Origin: Candidatus Heimdallarchaeota archaeon
GTDB taxonomy: Archaea > Asgardarchaeota > Heimdallarchaeia > Heimdallarchaeales > Heimdallarchaeaceae
Assembly: GCA_023270155.1 (NCBI GenBank)
Contig: JAGLTB010000040.1
Location: forward strand, 5,644 to 69,643
DNA: 64,000 bases
Direction of reading: 5' to 3'
Part shown: positions 16,276 through 64,000 of the stretch, one piece after another
How positions within the stretch are numbered: position 1 is the first letter of the stretch
Layout: every line of letters starts with the position of its first letter
The notes under the pieces: generated by a model
Databases searched by the model: none
What the model was told of the DNA's origin: nothing
The model's input: the letters and a program-made list of their open reading frames with translations, nothing else
Made by a program: the position numbers and the translations under genes

Positions 16276-19251
16276 TCAAGAAGAAGGAGACAGTAGAGTT
16301 AATTTCGTTTTGCAATAAGGACATCGTTCTTTTTCTTTAATCCAAGCTTTCAGATGGTTAAAATGAAAAATATGTTCACAAAGAGGACATTCGATACCAT
16401 TTTCATAAACAGGTTCTAGACAGATGAGACATTCATTTGAGGTTTCTTTCTCTTTCAATTTTGCTATGCCAACTTCTTTCGCTTTTTTGTGAATTCTATC
16501 TGCGATTATTATACTTTCTTGCATAGCAGGTTTCTTTGATTCAGCTTTTTGTTTAATAGCTCCTATTATTTTAGCTTTGTTTTGAAGATAGTTTATGTAA
16601 TTGCTTAAAGTTCCTTTACTGATATCTGAATCTCCAACAACTATGAGTTTTTTCTTTGCTCGAGTAATAGCAACGTTTAACCTACGATTATCTGCAAAAC
16701 CTTTGTTACCATGAAATTCAGATTCTGTTAATGAGAGAATTATAACTTCACGATCACTTCCTTGGAACCTATCTACTGTGTCCACTGTAATAGCTGATGG
16801 TAGATTCCTTCTAATCTCACTAACTTGACCTCTGTATGGACATATTATACCAAGTTGTTCTTCTTTCAATCCTAATTTCTGAAGGTTTGGAACAATTTCG
16901 CCTATTATTTTCGCTTCTTCCTTGTTTAATTTTTTATCATGCATAAAAGCACCTTTAGTAGGAAGAAAGATCAACGGATTTTCTGGATTGTAGATCTCAG
17001 CATCTTTGAAAGTTCCAAATGTCTCCTTGAAATTAGTTAAGTTTGATAGAGATTGTGATTTGACTTCTTCATCAAAGGATTCTAATTTTCCATCATAAAA
17101 TTCGTTGTTTGAAAATTCAATTAGTTTTTCATTCATTCTGAATTGTCTCGTTAGAAGATGTATATCTTCAGAATATACTTTTGCTAATCTTTCAAATATT
17201 GAAATCCCTAATCCTTCTTGTAACACCTTCGGGTTTTGAATTACAGGAGGGAGTTGCTTATGATCACCAACAAGAACAAATCTATCTCCTTCAATCAGCG
17301 CAGATAGAACTGTTGTTTCAGTCATTTGACTGGCTTCATCGATAATTACAGTTTGAATACCCATCTTCTCAAACACAGGGTTTGAAATCGAGGAAGTTGT
17401 TGATATTATAATTGGAATATCCTGAAGAATCTTTGTTGTGGATTTATCTACATTCCTTTCCTTATATGCTTTCAGAGTATAGTTGTGAATTTCTGATTGA
17501 ATAGAGTGAGTTCCTCCAAGCCTTACAAAACCACTATAACCATTTTCCAGTAAATATTTACAAATATTATCAACCGCTCTATTTGTGAATGCAGTAAGTA
17601 ATACTTTTTCACCATTGTTTGCAAGAGTAATAGCTGCTTTTGCTATTACATAGGTTTTTCCTGTTCCCGCGGGTCCTTGAATAAGACAGTAATTTTGAGT
17701 CCCCAATATTCTTTCAATTGCTTGATTCTGAATTTGATTATTAGAGATATAATCTCCTTTCACATGTTTAATATCTGGAGGTTTTTCTTCAATTACATAT
17801 TCTTTATACTTGTTTTTTCGAAATACAAGATTAAAAAGGCCTCTTTGTTGTCTTCTGAAACCAACGTCAATAGAATATTGATCCACAACTGTAATTTTTT
17901 CTGACATTGAACGTGTAATAATCTCAATAGAAGTACCACTAATGGAAGACACTACTCCCGTCACTATAGATCCCTTGAGAATATCCCCTTGACTAAGAAC
18001 AACAATATCTCCCTCACGCAATTCAGATTTATTATTGCATGAAAATAGTAAGCGAGTATGTCCTATTTCTTTGGTTTCATTTTCTAAAACTAAATTTTCA
18101 ATCGATTTACCTTTAGCAACTCTTTGTTCGACTTTTAGCTTCCACAAATCAGAGAAATTCCTACGAGATTCGTTTTTCTCCTCCCTTATCCAACGAGTAT
18201 ATCGGTTGAAGTAGTCCTGATGAGATTTCGGTAGTTCTTTTTTTGTACAATATGATTCATGATGACATGTAGAACAGTTACGTTCTTGGTTCAAGCCTGC
18301 ACACACAATCGCACAATAATGTTTCGTGAAGCAATTTCTGCACTTGTTTTTATCTTTGGGAGGAAGAATTTTTGGTTCATATCCCAAATAAGAAACTCTG
18401 TATGCGGTGTTTCTCTGATTCATTGCATATCGTAACAAACCCCAATTTGGTTGAGCTTTCTTCTCCACAACCTTTTTTGTACCTACATAGATTACTGTTC
18501 CCTCATTTGGTTTAGTTTGCTCAGTAAAATTTTCTAGACCATAACGATATGCTGTTACTTGTAGTAAATCTGAAAACCGCAATTCCTTATCTTCTGTTAG
18601 TTTTGCTGTTTTTAATTCAAATATATGGTCATTATGCAGAATATCTATTCTTCCCCTAATCCCATAAAAGGGGGATAAAAATAATATTTCAGGTATAGTC
18701 TGGCCTTTCAAATTCTCAACAAATGGATCAAGACATTCAACCATTTCTCGAACATCCTGATAAACTGCTTCTTTAGTATATCCAATATTCTCATATTGCA
18801 GTGAAAAAGCATCCAGTACAGCAGAAAGTTCCTCAGATGGTTTGGAGTTACTAACAAGGGCAGCATTTAAACAATCATGAACAATTGAACCCCTTATAGC
18901 TACGTAAGGAGAAGGTAATTCACCAATAATTTCATTCAGATAATAACTTCGAGGACAAAAGGAGACATTATTTATTGCAGTTGCATTGATCAAGATATCA
19001 GGATCCACAACAAATATTGATTTTGATCCAACTGAATAGAAGGTAGTATCATCCTTTTCTTTCTTTTCTGTGTTAAAAACTCTAAAAGAAGTGTAGGGTT
19101 GTATATAATCACTTACATCATGCCAAGGTGACCATAGATTTATCACAATATTTTCTTTCTCGATTGCAGCTAAAATTGTTGAACGAGGATTGTCACCGTT
19201 AGAACTTGAAAGAGTTTTGATATATACACCTGTTAAGTCAACCATTGTCAT
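16276..19251 (-). CDS. Dna2-like nuclease-helicase (Cas4/RecB-type Fe-S PD-(D/E)xK nuclease, Upf1-like SF1B helicase) with C-terminal RING/PHD-like zinc finger
   Basis: Nuclease region: CPRSYYL, D..ELK and the Cys cluster CRNCFTKHYC..C. Helicase region: GPAGTGKT, DEASQ, VGDHKQLPP, QFRMN and VDRFQGSDREV. C-terminus: CLIC-x10-CPLCEHIFHFNH-x10-CPYC. Confidence 0.75.
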   Translation of the reverse strand: MTMVDLTGVYIKTLSSSNGDNPRSTILAAIEKENIVINLWSPWHDVSDYIQPYTSFRVFNTEKKEKDDTTFYSVGSKSIFVVDPDILINATAINNVSFCPRSYYLNEIIGELPSPYVAIRGSIVHDCLNAALVSNSKPSEELSAVLDAFSLQYENIGYTKEAVYQDVREMVECLDPFVENLKGQTIPEILFLSPFYGIRGRIDILHNDHIFELKTAKLTEDKELRFSDLLQVTAYRYGLENFTEQTKPNEGTVIYVGTKKVVEKKAQPNWGLLRYAMNQRNTAYRVSYLGYEPKILPPKDKNKCRNCFTKHYCAIVCAGLNQERNCSTCHHESYCTKKELPKSHQDYFNRYTRWIREEKNESRRNFSDLWKLKVEQRVAKGKSIENLVLENETKEIGHTRLLFSCNNKSELREGDIVVLSQGDILKGSIVTGVVSSISGTSIEIITRSMSEKITVVDQYSIDVGFRRQQRGLFNLVFRKNKYKEYVIEEKPPDIKHVKGDYISNNQIQNQAIERILGTQNYCLIQGPAGTGKTYVIAKAAITLANNGEKVLLTAFTNRAVDNICKYLLENGYSGFVRLGGTHSIQSEIHNYTLKAYKERNVDKSTTKILQDIPIIISTTSSISNPVFEKMGIQTVIIDEASQMTETTVLSALIEGDRFVLVGDHKQLPPVIQNPKVLQEGLGISIFERLAKVYSEDIHLLTRQFRMNEKLIEFSNNEFYDGKLESFDEEVKSQSLSNLTNFKETFGTFKDAEIYNPENPLIFLPTKGAFMHDKKLNKEEAKIIGEIVPNLQKLGLKEEQLGIICPYRGQVSEIRRNLPSAITVDTVDRFQGSDREVIILSLTESEFHGNKGFADNRRLNVAITRAKKKLIVVGDSDISKGTLSNYINYLQNKAKIIGAIKQKAESKKPAMQESIIIADRIHKKAKEVGIAKLKEKETSNECLICLEPVYENGIECPLCEHIFHFNHLKAWIKEKERCPYCKTKLTLLSPSS

Positions 19252-19334: not shown

Positions 19335-19823
19335 TTGGTGAATGTTATGCCTGATGATGTGTTTATTCTGGACAAAAGTGGGATACCATACTATAGTAGG
19401 TGCTTTGGGGGAGAGACATGTAAAATGAGACCAGATCATACTTTACAAACGGGATTTCTAGCAGCATTGTATGCATTTTCAAAGGAATCATATGGACAAC
19501 AGGAGATTAGAACTGTTATCTTCTCTGATTTAAAATTACATTTCAAAGTTAACCAAGAAAAAGATGTAATAATAGTATTTACAGCACCATTAAGTGAAAA
19601 AGATGAAGAAGTAGAAGGACAAATGGATATGACATTGGGTGCTTTCTTGGAGTTGTATGAACAAGACATAGGAAAAGGATATGCTGATACAGAGAAGTTT
19701 GATGGATTTGACCAGACATTACAAGAGTTGAATGTAGTAAAAACAAAACCTATGGGAAGAATAAATTTAAGAGAAAAAGTAAGTAGTTGGAAGAAAATCT
19801 TCAGAAGATACAAACATAAATGA
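19335..19823 (+). CDS. longin/SNARE-like fold protein resembling TRAPP Bet5/sedlin or AP sigma subunits
   Basis: DVFILDKSGIPYYSRCF resembles Bet5 LYLFDRNGVCLHYSEW. LQTGFLAALYAFSKE resembles LMYGMLFSIRSFVSK. TVIFSDLKLHFKVNQEKDVIIVFTAP resembles YKLHYYETPTGIKVVMNTD. Basic C-terminal tail. Confidence 0.45.
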   Translation: MVNVMPDDVFILDKSGIPYYSRCFGGETCKMRPDHTLQTGFLAALYAFSKESYGQQEIRTVIFSDLKLHFKVNQEKDVIIVFTAPLSEKDEEVEGQMDMTLGAFLELYEQDIGKGYADTEKFDGFDQTLQELNVVKTKPMGRINLREKVSSWKKIFRRYKHK

Positions 19824-19862: not shown

Positions 19863-20039
19863 TTACTCGAAATCTATACATTCGCTTGGACATTCGTCTA
19901 TGCAAAGACCACAATCAGTACATTCTTCTTTTCTAACTGGCACCGAAACATCATTAACTAGTTCATAAACATTTTCAGGACAGATATCTATGCAAGCTTC
20001 ACAGGCAGTACAACATTCAGCTTTTACAACTGTTGGCAT
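19863..20039 (-). CDS. 2x[4Fe-4S] ferredoxin (58 aa), missed by the ORF track (<60 aa)
   Basis: Reverse-strand translation gives MPTVVKAECCTACEACIDICPENVYELVNDVSVPVRKEECTDCGLCIDECPSECIDFE, with two CxxCxxCxxxCP motifs. Confidence 0.6.
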   Translation of the reverse strand: MPTVVKAECCTACEACIDICPENVYELVNDVSVPVRKEECTDCGLCIDECPSECIDFE

Positions 20040-20151
20040 TTTTTCTAACTCCTTGGTTGATTAATTTGCTTTTCTTTTATTCCCTTTTTAAATTCTTCTA
20101 CATCGCTATGTATTTTAGGTTTATCAGGAAAAAAAAAGAAAAAAAGAGTTA

Positions 20152-22404
20152 TTATTTTACTTGAGTAGATCTTCCTCTTCCAAAATCTGAAATCACTATG
20201 TATGATACCAGTTTTGCGAAATATGTAGATCTGCTAAGAATGCCAACAACTTCATTCGTTGCTTCATCTTGAGCTGCAATCAAAACTTCTTCATTTTCTC
20301 GTTCAACACCAATGAAACGAGGCATTTCAACACCTGTTCCAGAATCTCTTAGCTTTCTTAATTCCACATTTGCCTGGGCATTTGTCATTGTATTTATCCA
20401 ATCTCTATCAGTTTCCTCATCCAGACTCGTGATTATTGTGACTTTAGCTGTGGTTGGAAGCTGCTTTATAGATTCTGTTGGAATATATTCAATCTTAGGT
20501 ACCATAATAGTCACTCCTCTCTTTGTATCTGTCACAATTCTAGACACGTGATCCAAAACAGCATCTAATCCCACAATTGAAGTTGTTTGAACTGGAGGAA
20601 TTTGAGACTCACTTGAAGTGGCTTCTAAGGTTCTGAAATCGTTTTTCAGTTTCATTGTTGCGCTTATTAGATAGTTAGCTGTATCTGTTAATTTTCTTTC
20701 TGAATCTTCAATAAACTTAACAGAAGAGTCAACTTCCTCAGTCAATTTGCCAGAAACTAGCTCCCTACTCTCTCGTATCCCGTTCTTTGAACTGTCAATT
20801 GCTTCTCTCGAAATGTTCAACGCAGATTCTATTGTTTTTTGAAGATGATTGTTTAAGCCAGATACAACCTCTGAAATAGTTGATTGAAACGAACTTTTAG
20901 ATTCATCGTATTTTTCATTAAGCTTTGTTTCAGTTTCCTGAGAAAGAAAATCCAATCTTTGTGATATTGTTTCCCAATTTTCTTTCAAAGATGATGATTC
21001 TGTAGTAAGATCTTGAGCAAGTGTTGTGTTTAGTTGAGTAGATAACTCCTTGAATTTGGTTAATTGAGAACGAATGCTGTTGACAATCTCTTCTGTTGTT
21101 GTATTAATTTGTTCAATTAAACTCTCTTCAAATCCACTGAAACGAGTAGTTGCTAGTTCTTTGACTTCATTTATTTTTTCATTGTATTCGTTAATAGCAG
21201 TAGTATATTGCGCATCTAGTTTTTGAATGAACATATCTCTTTCACTAACTAAATTATTCTTCTGAGTCTGTTCTTTGTTTTCTAAATCAGTGAATTTTAG
21301 ATTCATGCTTTCTCTGATTTGAGAAATTGAGCTTGAAATTGCTTGGTTTTTCTGCTGCATTAGTTCTTCTAATAAACTAACTTTAATTTGTGATACTTTC
21401 TCATTTAAAGCTGAGAGAGATTCCTTAATTTGGAGAGAAAGATCTTCTACTTTGTTGTTCAAAACCATGTCAAGGGAATTATTTAAATCAGTAAGAGAAC
21501 TTGAGACAGTTTCTGAAATTCCTTCGATTGTTTGTTCAGTATCTCTTGTTATTTCAGTGGAATAGCCTACATACTTTTCGGTTTGACCTCTGTTGAATGC
21601 TCTTACATCCATTTTTGTAGTATCTATGTTTTGTTTAATTTGTGCAATTGTTGAATCTATATCATCTAGATACTGTTGATTCATTGCATCAAATTTTGGT
21701 TTTGCTATTTTTGCAATTCCGGATATATTGTCTATAGATGTTTGAGAATTTTCCTCTATTTCTGTAGTGAATACAGTAAGATTCTCTTCATTTTTTGCTT
21801 TAATGTTGGAAACAGAAGATTCAATAGAAACTTTAGATTTATTCAAGCTTTCAATGCTATCCGTAAATACACTCTGCAATGTTGTTTGAACGTTTCTTCT
21901 ATGATTGTCTTGATCTGTGAGTATTTTGGATGAAAAAGCTCCTGTTTTCTCATTAATATCTTCTTTTTGTTGTTGGTTTAAGGTTTGAATTGAAGAAGAT
22001 GTTTGTGTTAATTTCTGATCTAATTCAGCTTCTTTTCTCGATACTGATTCATTTAAACTAATTGATAGATTACCTTTCAATTGATTAAACGTTTCTTTCT
22101 TTTCTTGGAGAAAAGATGTTGTCTGACCCAGAGTGCTTTTAACATTCTCGCTTAGTTGATCGCTTGTAGTTCCCAAGTAGTCCAATGGGATTTTCACGTA
22201 ATATTTTTTTACATATCCTTCCGAAGCACCAACAGCACCTTTATTCAACAGAGAATCTAATGCAACTTTAACCTTTGAAAAATGTAACTTGCTAAACTGT
22301 GTTATTTCAAAAGTAGTCAATTGACCTCCACCTAAAAGAAGTTGGTAAACTTGTTTTTCTTCAGGATTTAGTTGTAATCTTTCAATAAAGGACATTTTTT
22401 TCAC
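20152..22404 (-). CDS. TrmB-like wHTH / ~550-aa S/T/N/Q-rich coiled-coil / conserved C-terminal globular domain protein
   Basis: N-terminal EEKQVYQLLL..GQLTTFEITQFSKLHFSKVKVALDSLLNKGAV matches the TrmB/MarR-type wHTH. The central region is long and helical. The C-terminal ~150 aa is paralogous to the C-terminus of the ORF at 62374-64000. Confidence 0.5.
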   Translation of the reverse strand: MKKMSFIERLQLNPEEKQVYQLLLGGGQLTTFEITQFSKLHFSKVKVALDSLLNKGAVGASEGYVKKYYVKIPLDYLGTTSDQLSENVKSTLGQTTSFLQEKKETFNQLKGNLSISLNESVSRKEAELDQKLTQTSSSIQTLNQQQKEDINEKTGAFSSKILTDQDNHRRNVQTTLQSVFTDSIESLNKSKVSIESSVSNIKAKNEENLTVFTTEIEENSQTSIDNISGIAKIAKPKFDAMNQQYLDDIDSTIAQIKQNIDTTKMDVRAFNRGQTEKYVGYSTEITRDTEQTIEGISETVSSSLTDLNNSLDMVLNNKVEDLSLQIKESLSALNEKVSQIKVSLLEELMQQKNQAISSSISQIRESMNLKFTDLENKEQTQKNNLVSERDMFIQKLDAQYTTAINEYNEKINEVKELATTRFSGFEESLIEQINTTTEEIVNSIRSQLTKFKELSTQLNTTLAQDLTTESSSLKENWETISQRLDFLSQETETKLNEKYDESKSSFQSTISEVVSGLNNHLQKTIESALNISREAIDSSKNGIRESRELVSGKLTEEVDSSVKFIEDSERKLTDTANYLISATMKLKNDFRTLEATSSESQIPPVQTTSIVGLDAVLDHVSRIVTDTKRGVTIMVPKIEYIPTESIKQLPTTAKVTIITSLDEETDRDWINTMTNAQANVELRKLRDSGTGVEMPRFIGVERENEEVLIAAQDEATNEVVGILSRSTYFAKLVSYIVISDFGRGRSTQVK

Positions 22405-22523
22405 CTATTTATTTATTCAAAATTCTAGGATGTTTTCAAATTATTAACCTTTTGTAAATAACAGCTCTTTAGCATCTTTAAGAATCTTTTTAACAATCAA
22501 CAATTAAGTTCCAGTTGTGATTA

Positions 22524-61557: not shown

Positions 61558-62046
61558 AATCTATCTGCTTTTTAACAGATTATGCTCTGTTAATACATAA
61601 TTCTACACTAACAAATAATAACCGCAAAAAAATAAAAGCGATACATTTTTATCAAATTTCAGTTTTTTAAGGATTTGAGATTCTATTATTTTGAATCTTT
61701 ATTCACTTTTAGATACACAGATTACATCTTTACAGCTATATTTAGTCCTTGAAATAATTTATCAACATGTTAAATACTATTCATAAAATATGTTTTCCGT
61801 TTAAATTCTCCAAAATTAAGTAATTACTATGAGCTTTAATAATGCTGTAATCTCTTATTTCAGCAAATATGTGCAATTTTTTAAAAAGTAACAAAATAAT
61901 CATTTTCTATTTTGTATATTATGCTTGTGACTTAAAATTGTGATAGATATAACCAATAAAACAATATATGAGTTATTTTTTTCTGAGTAGATTTCAAATA
62001 GATTTAAAAAGAGAAAGTTTTGATTTTTTAACAACCTTTAAGGAAT

Positions 62047-62300
62047 TGATGAATGTGGCAGTAGCACTTGAAAATCCAAAATTAAAACAAGAGCTTTTAT
62101 CTGATTTACCTCCAAGCGCAATTACAATTTACAAAATTGTTATTGGAAATGGTCCAATCACTAGCAGAGAAATTGTCGAGATGTGCAGTTTAGCACCAAG
62201 AACAGTTCGTCATGGATTAAAACTTTTAGTAAGGGCTGGTTTAATTCTAAAACTTCCACATCTTCTAGATATGAGATCGTGTAAATTCTACGTTGATTAA
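62047..62300 (+). CDS. small winged-helix transcriptional-regulator-like protein
   Basis: ITSREIVEMCSLAPRTVRHGLKLLVRAGLI is an HTH. Start is ambiguous (61968 or 62047). Confidence 0.35.
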
Positions 62301-62373: not shown

Positions 62374-64000
62374 TTATACTTCCACATCACTGGAATGAAA
62401 TAGAACATCTCTATTTATAGCAGCTTTGAACAATTGCAAAAGAAGATCATTTGTTGTTCTAACAGCAATTGGAACTTCATCAGTAGAAAGAAATGCGAAA
62501 ATAGCTTCTTGATTACCATCAAGAATTCCACAGAAAACATCTTTCTTTTCATAGTGTTTTAACTTCAAACCGGTGAATCTTTCTGATAAAGGTCTAAGCA
62601 GTGTTTGGTGTTTACTTTTATCAAACGATGAGACTAAAGTTATTCGTTGAGCTTTTGTATATTGCATCATTTCTTTTAATAACTCTTCATCAACATCGGG
62701 AGTAACCAAAAGCAACTCAAATTTAGAACGCATTGCAATATCTGTTACACTCGCCTTAATAGCCTCTTCTCCAACAATTATTGATGTGTTATGCTGACCA
62801 TCGAAGGAATAAGTAGAAGCTGATTTATCTATTTGTTTAAGCTCATCTTCTCTAGTATTAATGACTTGGTAAAAGGTCATTGCTTTTTCCATTAAAGAAT
62901 CGAGTTGAGATACTAAAATTTCATCTACATCTTTGATTACAGCAGCTACTTGTGACACAAGAGTATTAATCTGAATGTCTTCCCCTTCAGTAACTTGCTT
63001 GACAATTTGATCTTTATGCTCTTCCTTGTAATCCTTCAAGTTCTGTTTTGTATTTGTTAGCTCTTGCGCAAAGGCTTCTTTTTTCGTATTCACTTGCTCA
63101 TTGAAACTAGTAACAGAAGATTGTAGCTTTTCTTTTAAATCCAAAGCCATCTTTTCAGAATCTTGTTTTGATCTGCTTAGTTCCTTTATGACATTTGATT
63201 GCAGCTTTTCTATCACTTGAAATTGATCATTTGCATAGATCTTAACTTCCTTTGTTGCTTGTTCTTTCATTGCTGTTAATTGCTCATCTGTCGTCTGTTT
63301 CAGTTCTTGAGTTACTTGTGAGCATGAATCATAAGAAGATCTAGCATATGTTTCAGTTTGGTTTTGAAGTAAATCTAGTAAATCGCTTGGAAGTAAGTCA
63401 ATTTTTTCCAATGTAGCATCAATAAGCAGATTCTTCTTTGTTCTTATTGTAGTTTCACCATCAAGTTGGAAATGATCGAGCTGTGATCTGATTTCATCCC
63501 TGACTTCATTTAGTGCTAGAACATGTTGATCGATTAATTGTAAACCGCTTTCATTGAGATCATTTGCTAAATTTCTTACGGTATCTCTTGCATCTATCAA
63601 GGGTGACTCAATTTGTTTTCTTGCTTTTCCTAATTTTAGAACAGCTGAAGAGTCTATGCTATTAATAGCCTCAGCAATCTTCGAGGACAAGAAGTTTGTT
63701 TGTCTGTCTATCTGCTCAACACTCCTACGTAGTTCTTGGGTTTGTTTTATTTGCTCAGAGAACAGATTATTCACGTCTTGTGATAATGCATCTACAATCT
63801 TCTTTGATTCATTAATCCAACCCGAATAGGCTTCTTGCCAAACTTTGTTGTAGTTATCAGAAAAAGATTCTTGAATCTCCGAAATTTTACCGACTAACTC
63901 TTTAAGTTCCACATCTATTTCCGGTGCAAGTTTTTCTAAGAACTCATGGTGATTATCAGTATGAGCATCAAGCCCGTTACTAACAATTTTTTTCAGATTG
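62374..64000 (-). CDS. long coiled-coil protein paralogous to 20152-22404 (N-terminus beyond window end)
   Basis: The reading frame stays open to the window edge. An S/T/N/Q/E/K-rich helical region is followed by a C-terminal domain whose TSIIVG..KAQRITLVSSFD.. pattern parallels TSIVGL..AKVTIITSLD of the other copy. Confidence 0.45.
   Translation of the reverse strand, partial: NLKKIVSNGLDAHTDNHHEFLEKLAPEIDVELKELVGKISEIQESFSDNYNKVWQEAYSGWINESKKIVDALSQDVNNLFSEQIKQTQELRRSVEQIDRQTNFLSSKIAEAINSIDSSAVLKLGKARKQIESPLIDARDTVRNLANDLNESGLQLIDQHVLALNEVRDEIRSQLDHFQLDGETTIRTKKNLLIDATLEKIDLLPSDLLDLLQNQTETYARSSYDSCSQVTQELKQTTDEQLTAMKEQATKEVKIYANDQFQVIEKLQSNVIKELSRSKQDSEKMALDLKEKLQSSVTSFNEQVNTKKEAFAQELTNTKQNLKDYKEEHKDQIVKQVTEGEDIQINTLVSQVAAVIKDVDEILVSQLDSLMEKAMTFYQVINTREDELKQIDKSASTYSFDGQHNTSIIVGEEAIKASVTDIAMRSKFELLLVTPDVDEELLKEMMQYTKAQRITLVSSFDKSKHQTLLRPLSERFTGLKLKHYEKKDVFCGILDGNQEAIFAFLSTDEVPIAVRTTNDLLLQLFKAAINRDVLFHSSDVEV

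Follow-up and report, generated by a model that had tools for sequence, protein, structure and literature searches.

What kind of protein consists for the greater part of one very long helix with a small domain at either end, to which family does it belong, and what might it do in an Asgard archaeon? These questions are raised by two genes on contig JAGLTB010000040.1 of a Candidatus Heimdallarchaeota archaeon (assembly GCA_023270155.1), of which a stretch of 64,000 nucleotides, referred to here as the window, was analyzed. The first (gene 1, representing 'family 1') encodes a protein of 747 amino acids (aa); the second (gene 2, 'family 2') runs out of the window. The analysis shows that both genes represent an uncharacterised branch of the TrmB family that has a TrmBL2-like domain composition and is found across Asgard archaea, and that the short dimerising helix of TrmB/TrmBL2 is expanded in this branch to ~520 residues, with a hendecad register that continues from end to end. 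The original prediction, made from the letters of the window, had described a pair of paralogues in which a winged-helix head, a very long helical middle and a common tail follow one another, and this description was borne out. The two genes and their parts are listed below with the evidence that defines each.

20152..22395, minus strand: gene 1 (family 1), a 747-aa TrmB-like rod protein plus stop codon; from the open reading frame (ORF) and the starts of homologues
22186..22395, minus strand: TrmB-type winged helix-turn-helix, aa 1-70; from Pfam PF01978, PDB profile matches and AlphaFold2
20629..22185, minus strand: hendecad rod, aa 71-589, ~47 x 11 residues; from AlphaFold2 helices, Fourier power and constant phase
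21196..21630, minus strand: conserved central rod segment, aa 256-400; from column entropy, with low AlphaFold2 confidence
20155..20586, minus strand: phospholipase-D-like domain of the TrmB/TrmBL2 type, no HKD, aa 604-747; from AlphaFold2 and Foldseek
22401..22405, minus strand: Shine-Dalgarno-like GGTGA holding a spurious GTG; read from the sequence
20129..20147, minus strand: T-rich tract right after the gene 1 stop codon; read from the sequence
62374..64000, minus strand: 3' part of gene 2 (family 2), the last 541 aa and the stop codon; the frame is open to the window end
62791..63999, minus strand: visible part of the family 2 hendecad rod; from Fourier power and smooth phase
62377..62790, minus strand: family 2 C-terminal phospholipase-D-like domain; from co-alignment with family 1, a hidden Markov model (HMM) and profile-profile comparison

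Domain composition of the two proteins

A mechanically called ORF, 20152-22404 on the minus strand (750 aa from a GTG codon), is present in the sequence. The start of gene 1 is nevertheless ATG 22395 and not GTG 22404, because all 47 database homologues begin with MSFIERL and because the GTG falls inside a GGTGA motif 5 nt upstream of the ATG. The length of the protein is closely kept: nearly all homologues measure 744-763 aa, and the figure of 747 aa holds as far as 50% identity, while at 33% it is 746 aa. Family 1 was found in 28 species-level genomes, 27 of which are labelled Heimdallarchaeota or unclassified archaeal metagenome-assembled genomes and one Thorarchaeota; Ca. Heimdallarchaeum aukensis and endolithica carry it at 31-34% identity and ~750 aa. 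Source names of homologues put both window proteins in Candidatus Heimdallarchaeota/Heimdallarchaeaceae. The T-rich tract at 20129..20147 is probably an archaeal oligo-T terminator of gene 1.

The closest homologue of gene 2, P0048, is 94% identical and has 766 aa; family 2 homologues in general have 762-767 aa, most of them with a precomputed Pfam TrmB match. By comparison with these, the first ~225 aa of the gene 2 product, including the winged helix, should fall beyond the window. The C-terminal domains of the two window proteins are 21% identical by BLASTP (E 5e-4) and co-align from end to end with matching order of predicted strands and helices, and the domain HMM recognised that of gene 2 at E 1e-64. 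Profile-profile comparison of the two whole-family alignments gave 96.5% probability and E 8e-10, covering the N-terminus and the first arm of the rod; taken part by part, family 1 matched family 2 at E 8e-6 in the N-terminal domain, 1.4e-5 in the C-terminal domain and 7e-5 in the middle. From these comparisons, genes 1 and 2 appear as distant, ancient paralogues of the same architecture, and the shared C-terminal domain that had been noticed by eye is confirmed. No other ORF of the window has the C-terminal domain or the periodicity described below. At least five genomes (window included) carry both paralogues, and in those for which the spacing is known it amounts to 42-49 kb.

As had been proposed, the N-terminal domain of the gene 1 protein is a TrmB-type winged helix. 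With a cut-off of 25.6 bits, Pfam PF01978 gave 29.2 for the full protein and 33.6 when the domain was scored in isolation, AlphaFold2 predicted helices within residues 3-51, and PF01978 was matched by 18/18 superfamily members tested. A profile of 18 superfamily N-termini, searched against the PDB, yielded TrmBL2 at E 1e-14 and TrmB at 1.6e-11, with the next match at 5e-6; the alignment to TrmBL2/TrmB extends into the start of the helix that follows.

For the C-terminal domain, AlphaFold2 was run on the whole gene 1 protein (monomer; predicted local distance difference test, pLDDT, 71.6) and on the domain alone, which reached pLDDT 80 and a predicted template-modelling (TM) score, pTM, of 0.76 by itself and ~80 pLDDT within the whole-protein model. 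The top Foldseek match of both models was TrmBL2 (5bqt; E 1.5e-7 for the whole protein and 5.5e-8 for the domain; TM 0.63, probability 1.00), followed by the TrmB effector-domain structure 2F5T (TM 0.68, root-mean-square deviation 3.2 Å), full-length TrmB and enzymes of the phospholipase-D fold; TrmBL2/TrmB matches to the domain model ranged from E 5.5e-8 to 3.4e-7. The HxK(x)4D motif is found in neither window protein and in only 1/184 relatives, and because it is missing, the predicted phospholipase-D-like fold of the C-terminus should, like that of TrmB, be catalytically dead. At the level of sequence, phmmer and profiles of the whole protein, of the two families and of a 22-member superfamily, searched against the PDB, as well as searches of Pfam and NCBIfam, returned chance-level matches only for this domain; a homologue search with the C-terminal superfamily profile gave fragments only.

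The gene 1 protein stops 8-10 residues past the phospholipase-D-like domain. Because it stops right there, the sugar-binding subdomain of TrmB is missing, which is the TrmBL2 arrangement (PMC4158304); the corresponding Pfam family of the sugar-binding effector domain, PF11495, gave no match even at E up to 10. The alternative role of a signal-responsive regulator, which the original prediction had also entertained, is therefore unlikely.

The best solved relative of both ends is TrmBL2 (TK0471/PF0496; PDB 5BPD, 5BPI, 5BQT), a chromatin protein of Thermococcales. Like the rod proteins, it is composed of a winged helix, an amphipathic helix and a phospholipase-D-like domain and has no sugar-binding subdomain. 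Unlike them, it has 264 aa and a linker helix of a few turns, whereas the helix of the rod proteins measures ~520 residues (480-1667 in relatives); identity between the C-terminal domains is 7-12%, undetectable by sequence, and Tyr50 is not kept in the rod proteins. The sugar-sensing regulator TrmB of P. furiosus and T. litoralis (PDB 3QPH, 2F5T) shares the PF01978 winged helix and the phospholipase-D-like first effector subdomain; the rod proteins differ from it by the missing sugar-binding subdomain, by the missing Tyr50/Asp51 and by a 2-5 times greater length. In TrmB, the amphipathic helix after the winged helix forms an antiparallel coiled coil (PMC4158304). Its length is ~30 residues, as against ~520 in the rod proteins.

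These results divide the earlier verdict of an unassignable family. A full-text literature search found no paper on this architecture, and in that sense no characterised protein possesses it; the N-terminal profile and the predicted C-terminal fold, however, both point to TrmBL2/TrmB. What is new is an architectural variant of the TrmB/TrmBL2 family, the family itself being known. Members are labelled in databases as 'hypothetical', 'HTH domain-containing', 'sugar-specific TrmB' or 'apolipoprotein A-IV repeat-like'; of the labels 'hypothetical', 'sugar-specific TrmB regulator' and 'apolipoprotein-like', two mislead.

The hendecad rod

AlphaFold2 predicted the middle of the gene 1 protein to form helices 71-274 and 375-589 with pLDDT of ~80-90. 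This region, composed of 13% S, 11% E, 10% T, 8% K, 8% N and 7% Q, had been described as low-complexity, strongly helical and rich in S/T/N/Q/E/K; helix and composition hold, but low complexity does not, the mean entropy of 12-residue windows being 2.89 bits, with 0.2% of the windows below 2.2 bits. The rod contains no indels across 23 aligned homologues down to 33% identity.

Hydropathy along family 1 has a single sharp period of 3.66-3.68 residues, which equals 11/3. The Fourier power of the family 1 alignment profile (residues 76-590) was 428 at 3.67 versus 0.0 at 3.5, and that of the single gene 1 sequence 416 versus 0.1. In 1000 shuffles of gene 1 the maximum over all periods averaged 43 (standard deviation, SD, 12; highest value 119), which places the observed periodicity ~30 SD above the shuffles; no heptad signal was seen. 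Family 2 behaved likewise, with power of 384 at 3.67 versus 13.5 at 3.5 in the alignment (residues 90-620; phase smooth) and 455 in the single sequence versus a shuffle maximum of 115. Across the tests of both families, power at 3.5 amounted to 0-22. The phase of gene 1 is near-constant along the rod, drifting by less than one residue, and the amplitude peaks at residues 281-335.

Written in rows of 11, the rod carries L/I/V/F/M in 56-60% of cases at frame positions 3 and 10 and in 35-38% at positions 6 and 7, and the remaining positions are occupied by S/T/N/Q/E/K. This pattern is the a/d/e/h core of a hendecad coiled coil, with ~47 hendecads that all share a register; if it forms one helix, the rod would measure ~75 nm. 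The earlier designation as a coiled coil of ~550 aa is accordingly right about the long helix and wrong if a classical heptad coiled coil was meant, the periodicity being 11/3 and the power at 3.5 only 0.1. Autocorrelation of the family 1 rod peaks at 11, 22, 33, 37 and 88, with no dominant higher-order repeat. A recent tandem duplication as the origin of the rod pattern was considered and rejected, since no higher-order sequence repeat dominates.

Right-handed hendecad coiled coils that form near-straight, stiff rods are known from the E-G peripheral stalk of A/V-type rotary ATPases and from tetrabrachion, which the rod proteins resemble in their a/d/e/h core. The E-G stalks comprise ~10 hendecads, compared with 47 in gene 1 and ~150 in relatives. 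There is no sequence relationship to either, and the end domains differ.

Relatives were collected by an exhaustive profile search and clustered at 50% identity, which gave 659 superfamily clusters at E <=1e-3 and 171 at E <=1e-10. Both end domains are present in 88 of the representatives read (<50% identical to each other), with rods of 480-1667 residues, corresponding to 44-152 hendecads; in 16/16 long members bearing the end domains that were examined in detail, the periodicity peaks at 3.65-3.68. Total lengths fall into sharp classes (representatives P0071-P0219, <50% identical) of ~750, 805, 910, 1090-1120, 1305, 1410 and 1450-1480 aa. Every source-named member is Asgard: Heimdallarchaeota, Kariarchaeaceae, Hodarchaeota, Baldrarchaeia, Odinarchaeota or Promethearchaeota. 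As a side observation, segments of long members that resemble the arms are hit by the profile at more than one offset, which suggests that the long rods grew by internal duplication mid-rod. In the proteome of Prometheoarchaeum syntrophicum, the ten proteins with the highest scores include a 'TrmB family transcriptional regulator' (PMC11284389) that may belong to the rod family, a membership that could not be confirmed for DSAG12_03376 of P. syntrophicum.

Both ends of the protein and a block in its centre are well conserved; the two arms between them, which are similar in length, show low conservation. In family 1, column entropy is 0.66-1.15 bits in aa 256-400 versus 1.3-2.1 bits in the arms 76-255 and 401-570. 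The pattern is mirror-symmetric, about residue 324 in family 1 (r 0.67) and about residue 347 in family 2 (r 0.79). The sole proline of the family 1 rod is invariant and lies in a KPK motif at residue 233, at 0.30 of the rod, where it may form a conserved kink. An analogous proline is present at 0.20 of the rod in the 910-aa class.

Possible function and alternative readings

Because a narrow, straight hydrophobic seam such as that of the a, d, e and h positions has to be buried by packing on one or more other helices, we infer a two-stranded rod. The second strand could come from another molecule of the same protein or, possibly, from the other paralogue, a family 1/2 heterodimer being allowed because the rods of co-resident paralogues are near-equal in length. 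In TrmB, the amphipathic helix pairs in antiparallel fashion through F81/I91' and F84/L88' (PMC4158304). If the rod proteins do the same, the winged helix of one chain would lie beside the phospholipase-D-like domain of its partner at each end. An antiparallel homodimer would thus hold two TrmBL2-like heads ~75 nm apart, and its centre would pair with itself, from which mirror-symmetric conservation would follow.

On balance, and with little to spare, we think it probable that the protein is a TrmBL2 derivative that forms a stiff two-stranded rod of ~75 nm and has an architectural role, perhaps that of spacing or bridging DNA at a fixed distance. A structural or tethering role, one of the possibilities put forward in the original prediction, is still the most plausible reading. 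With its constant length, the protein would keep two segments of DNA apart or connect them, or do the same for DNA and a partner that binds the conserved middle of the rod; such a role would extend the chromatin function of TrmBL2 and would differ from that of an effector-sensing transcription switch. Strict lengths within lineages, together with very different lengths between them (44-152 hendecads), fit a molecular ruler. A spacer or bridge of DNA is the most economical guess because TrmBL2 is a nucleoid protein that makes stiff filaments on DNA and stalls SMC (PMC11840125).

The design proposed here is realised on a small scale elsewhere in archaea. Sso10a of Sulfolobus, a DNA-bridging chromatin protein, dimerises through an antiparallel coiled coil attached to its winged helix, so that the two DNA-binding domains sit at opposite ends. 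It differs from the rod proteins in its size (~95 aa), its short heptad coil and its lack of a phospholipase-D-like domain, and it does not belong to the TrmB family.

Several observations weigh against a DNA-bridging rod. The column of the DNA-contact residue Tyr50 of TrmB holds K/T/Q/E/I/V/D/P, is often acidic and has tyrosine in 0/18 members; the following column (Asp51 in TrmB) is also variable among these 18, and recognition-helix residues differ among family 1 orthologues. Net charge amounts to -5 to +1 in the N-terminal domain and to -24 to -115 in the rod, the protein as a whole being acidic. The 'DNA-binding head' of the earlier description is hence an assumption, the domain being neutral to acidic and the contact tyrosine missing in all 18 members. 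Searches of the PDB and Pfam by sequence or profile gave nothing for the C-terminal domain, whose link to TrmB comes from predicted structure. The neighbouring genes are read as housekeeping genes in conserved synteny and not as an operon, and they offer no functional clue. Finally, the monomer model of AlphaFold2 breaks the helix at 275-280 and 361-374 and folds it back, with low confidence at 272-378, and Foldseek aligns the whole model to chains of Rad50 and Smc5/6 with a probability of 0.82-0.89.

These two features of the model speak at the same time for an intramolecular hairpin in the manner of SMC/Rad50/MukB, which deserves to be taken seriously although, on the whole, we consider it doubtful. 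The chain would fold at its conserved centre and its arms would pair antiparallel, giving a compact TrmBL2-like head on a ~35 nm stalk whose apex is a dimerisation or partner site. The two predicted helices are of similar length around the low-confidence middle, and an indel-free rod suits arms that are obliged to match. The mirror symmetry of conservation about the midpoint would be expected of a hairpin, but suits an antiparallel dimer equally. Monomer AlphaFold2 commonly folds long dimeric helices back, and the TM scores to Rad50/SMC are 0.12-0.18. The hendecad register of gene 1 crosses the centre without a jump, where its amplitude is in fact strongest (281-335); among the 88 relatives the phase shifts by a median of 17 degrees from one 66-residue window to the next, and 56/88 are free of any register jump. 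In family 1, the rod centre has no conserved Gly/Pro, the only invariant proline being that at 233, and the whole family has no cysteine. Some long relatives, such as P0103, P0146 and P0145, do have a proline cluster at 0.45-0.55 of the rod, and the 88 relatives carry 59 central prolines versus 33 expected; this excess is driven by a subset, since 27/88 proteins carry a central proline versus 25 by chance. A comparison of the hydropathy profile with its own reverse, as a test of antiparallel or hairpin against parallel arrangement, gave no unique register, forward shifts scoring equally.

With SMC, Rad50 and MukB themselves the rod proteins have in common very long helical arms, a conserved centre, conservation of length and a possible role in DNA architecture. 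They differ in lacking an ABC ATPase head and, as far as the sequence shows, a hinge or zinc hook, and in having a continuous hendecad register in place of interrupted heptads. No Walker A motif was found in the rod proteins, and there were no Pfam or NCBIfam matches to SMC, AAA or ABC families, nor, at E up to 1, to MCP signalling or HAMP domains. The proteins are thus not assignable to the SMC-like or MCP-like families, which had been named as the competing assignment.

It is very unlikely, in our estimate, that the rod is instead a giant amphipathic helix of the apolipoprotein, perilipin or LEA type that lies flat on a membrane or lipid droplet while its TrmB-like ends tether DNA or partners. 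Helices that lie on lipid surfaces are typically marked by an 11/3 periodicity and an S/T-rich polar face, and apolipoproteins A-I, A-IV and E (PF01442) and the giant helix of perilipin-4 are, like the rod, built of amphipathic repeats based on 11 residues. The Pfam family Apolipoprotein A1/A4/E was the strongest in the middle region (E 7e-9), apolipoprotein A-IV was the sole PDB sequence match, and one database source names a relative 'apolipoprotein A-IV repeat region-like'. We ascribe these sub-threshold matches to the shared 11-residue basis of the repeats: PF01442 scores 36.1 bits on family 1 and 17.8 on family 2 against a curated cut-off of 90. The stripe of the rod is narrow, with two positions at 56-60% and two at ~35% L/I/V/F/M, and resembles an a/d/e/h core rather than a broad lipid face. 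Proline-punctuated 22-mers are absent, the rod having one proline, its strongly negative net charge disfavours anionic membranes, and both flanking domains belong to a family of soluble DNA-binding proteins.

We hold it to be just as improbable that the proteins form cytoskeletal filaments like those of crescentin, FilP or Scy, assembling head-to-tail through contacts of the winged helix with the phospholipase-D-like domain into a scaffold unrelated to DNA. Scy and FilP also combine a long rod, globular ends and a non-heptad periodicity, and the absence of the DNA-contact tyrosine agrees with such a scaffold. Head-to-tail assembly could be supported by the contact seen in TrmB, where the DNA-binding domain packs on the effector domain of the other chain (PMC4158304). 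Length-quantised rods with conserved centres are, however, atypical of intermediate-filament-like proteins, and the nearest relatives of both end domains bind DNA. That the protein is an ordinary effector-responsive TrmB transcription factor, as the Pfam TrmB domain and the name 'sugar-specific transcriptional regulator TrmB' used by some sources would have it, is scarcely credible given the lack of a sugar-binding subdomain and of a PF11495 match, the missing tyrosine and variable residues of the recognition helix, a 520-residue rod without a role in such a switch, and the absence of conserved sugar-metabolism genes nearby.

The reading as an architectural TrmBL2 derivative can also be put in a bolder form, which in all its parts we regard as unlikely. 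The proteins would be Asgard-specific struts of fixed length, each a continuous right-handed hendecad coiled coil of two strands, 75 nm long in this case and up to ~250 nm in Lokiarchaeia, with TrmBL2-like heads at both ends or in the form of a family 1/2 heterodimer, and their task would be to hold segments of chromosomal DNA together or apart, or to connect the nucleoid with another structure bound at the conserved rod centre.

Genomic surroundings and significance

The genes adjoining the two rod genes in the window are the following:

19863..20039, minus strand: ferredoxin of 58 aa with 2x[4Fe-4S]; from Pfam Fer4 families
19335-19823, plus strand: 162-aa ORF that had been called longin-like; sub-threshold Fuz_longin_1 only
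16276-19251, minus strand: Dna2-type nuclease-helicase, 991 aa; from Pfam Dna2, PDDEXK_1, AAA_11 and AAA_12
61968..62300, plus strand: small stand-alone winged-helix protein, convergent with gene 2 at a distance of 73 bp; from HTH_24 (E 5e-5)

Across the 28 genomes, gene order is conserved as RFC large subunit, small ORF, phosphoribosyltransferase, family 1, ferredoxin, Dna2-like helicase. The ferredoxin gene downstream of gene 1 on the same strand, which had been noticed as an unannotated gene, is confirmed by the Pfam Fer4 families and follows family 1 in 28/28 species genomes, inverted in two of them. It has its own TATA-like and ribosome-binding signals (TTTAAAAA and AAGGAG) downstream of the T-tract and, by these signals, is probably a separate transcript. 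A functional link between family 1 and the ferredoxin was rejected on account of the T-tract and the separate promoter-like signals between the genes and of the inversion in 2/28 genomes.

The designation of the 162-aa ORF as longin-like could not be upheld, its sole match, to Fuz_longin_1, being sub-threshold (E 0.071; 13.8 bits versus a cut-off of 26.1) and no PDB sequence match being found. This ORF adjoins family 1 in 10/28 genomes and is a variable insertion in an otherwise fixed synteny. The Dna2-type helicase adjoins family 1 in most Heimdall loci; the protein in the window carries a C-terminal RING finger at residues 939-981 (zf-RING_2, 29.7 bits versus a cut-off of 27.3), and such a Dna2-RING fusion is, to our knowledge, unusual.

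The small winged-helix gene that had been seen to face gene 2 is confirmed by its HTH_24 match. Its product also matches the family 1 N-terminal HMM weakly (E 8.8e-4), and the gene lies in the same position in a second Heimdall genome (L002 10349-10594); judged from sequence, the protein may be TrmB-like and may work with, or derive from, the rod proteins. In that genome, family 2 keeps the convergent small winged-helix gene together with endonuclease V, a radical-SAM gene and a nucleoside triphosphate (NTP)-transferase, and the eukaryote-signature genes of a Roadblock/LC7 protein and an Arf-like small GTPase lie a few kb upstream of family 2 (L002 3565-6344).

Taken together, the rod family is present in every major Asgard lineage sampled, and in Heimdallarchaeaceae as two ancient paralogues. 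It joins the end domains of the archaeal chromatin protein TrmBL2 to helices of 44-152 hendecad repeats whose lengths are sharply fixed within lineages; we know of no longer register-perfect hendecad helices. If the proteins are rigid rulers or bridges of DNA, they would represent a new kind of prokaryotic chromosome-architecture protein, and they would provide a natural model for right-handed two-stranded coiled coils. If they act as struts in Asgard archaea, the nucleoid of the closest prokaryotic relatives of eukaryotes would contain an unrecognised and possibly abundant class of scaffold.

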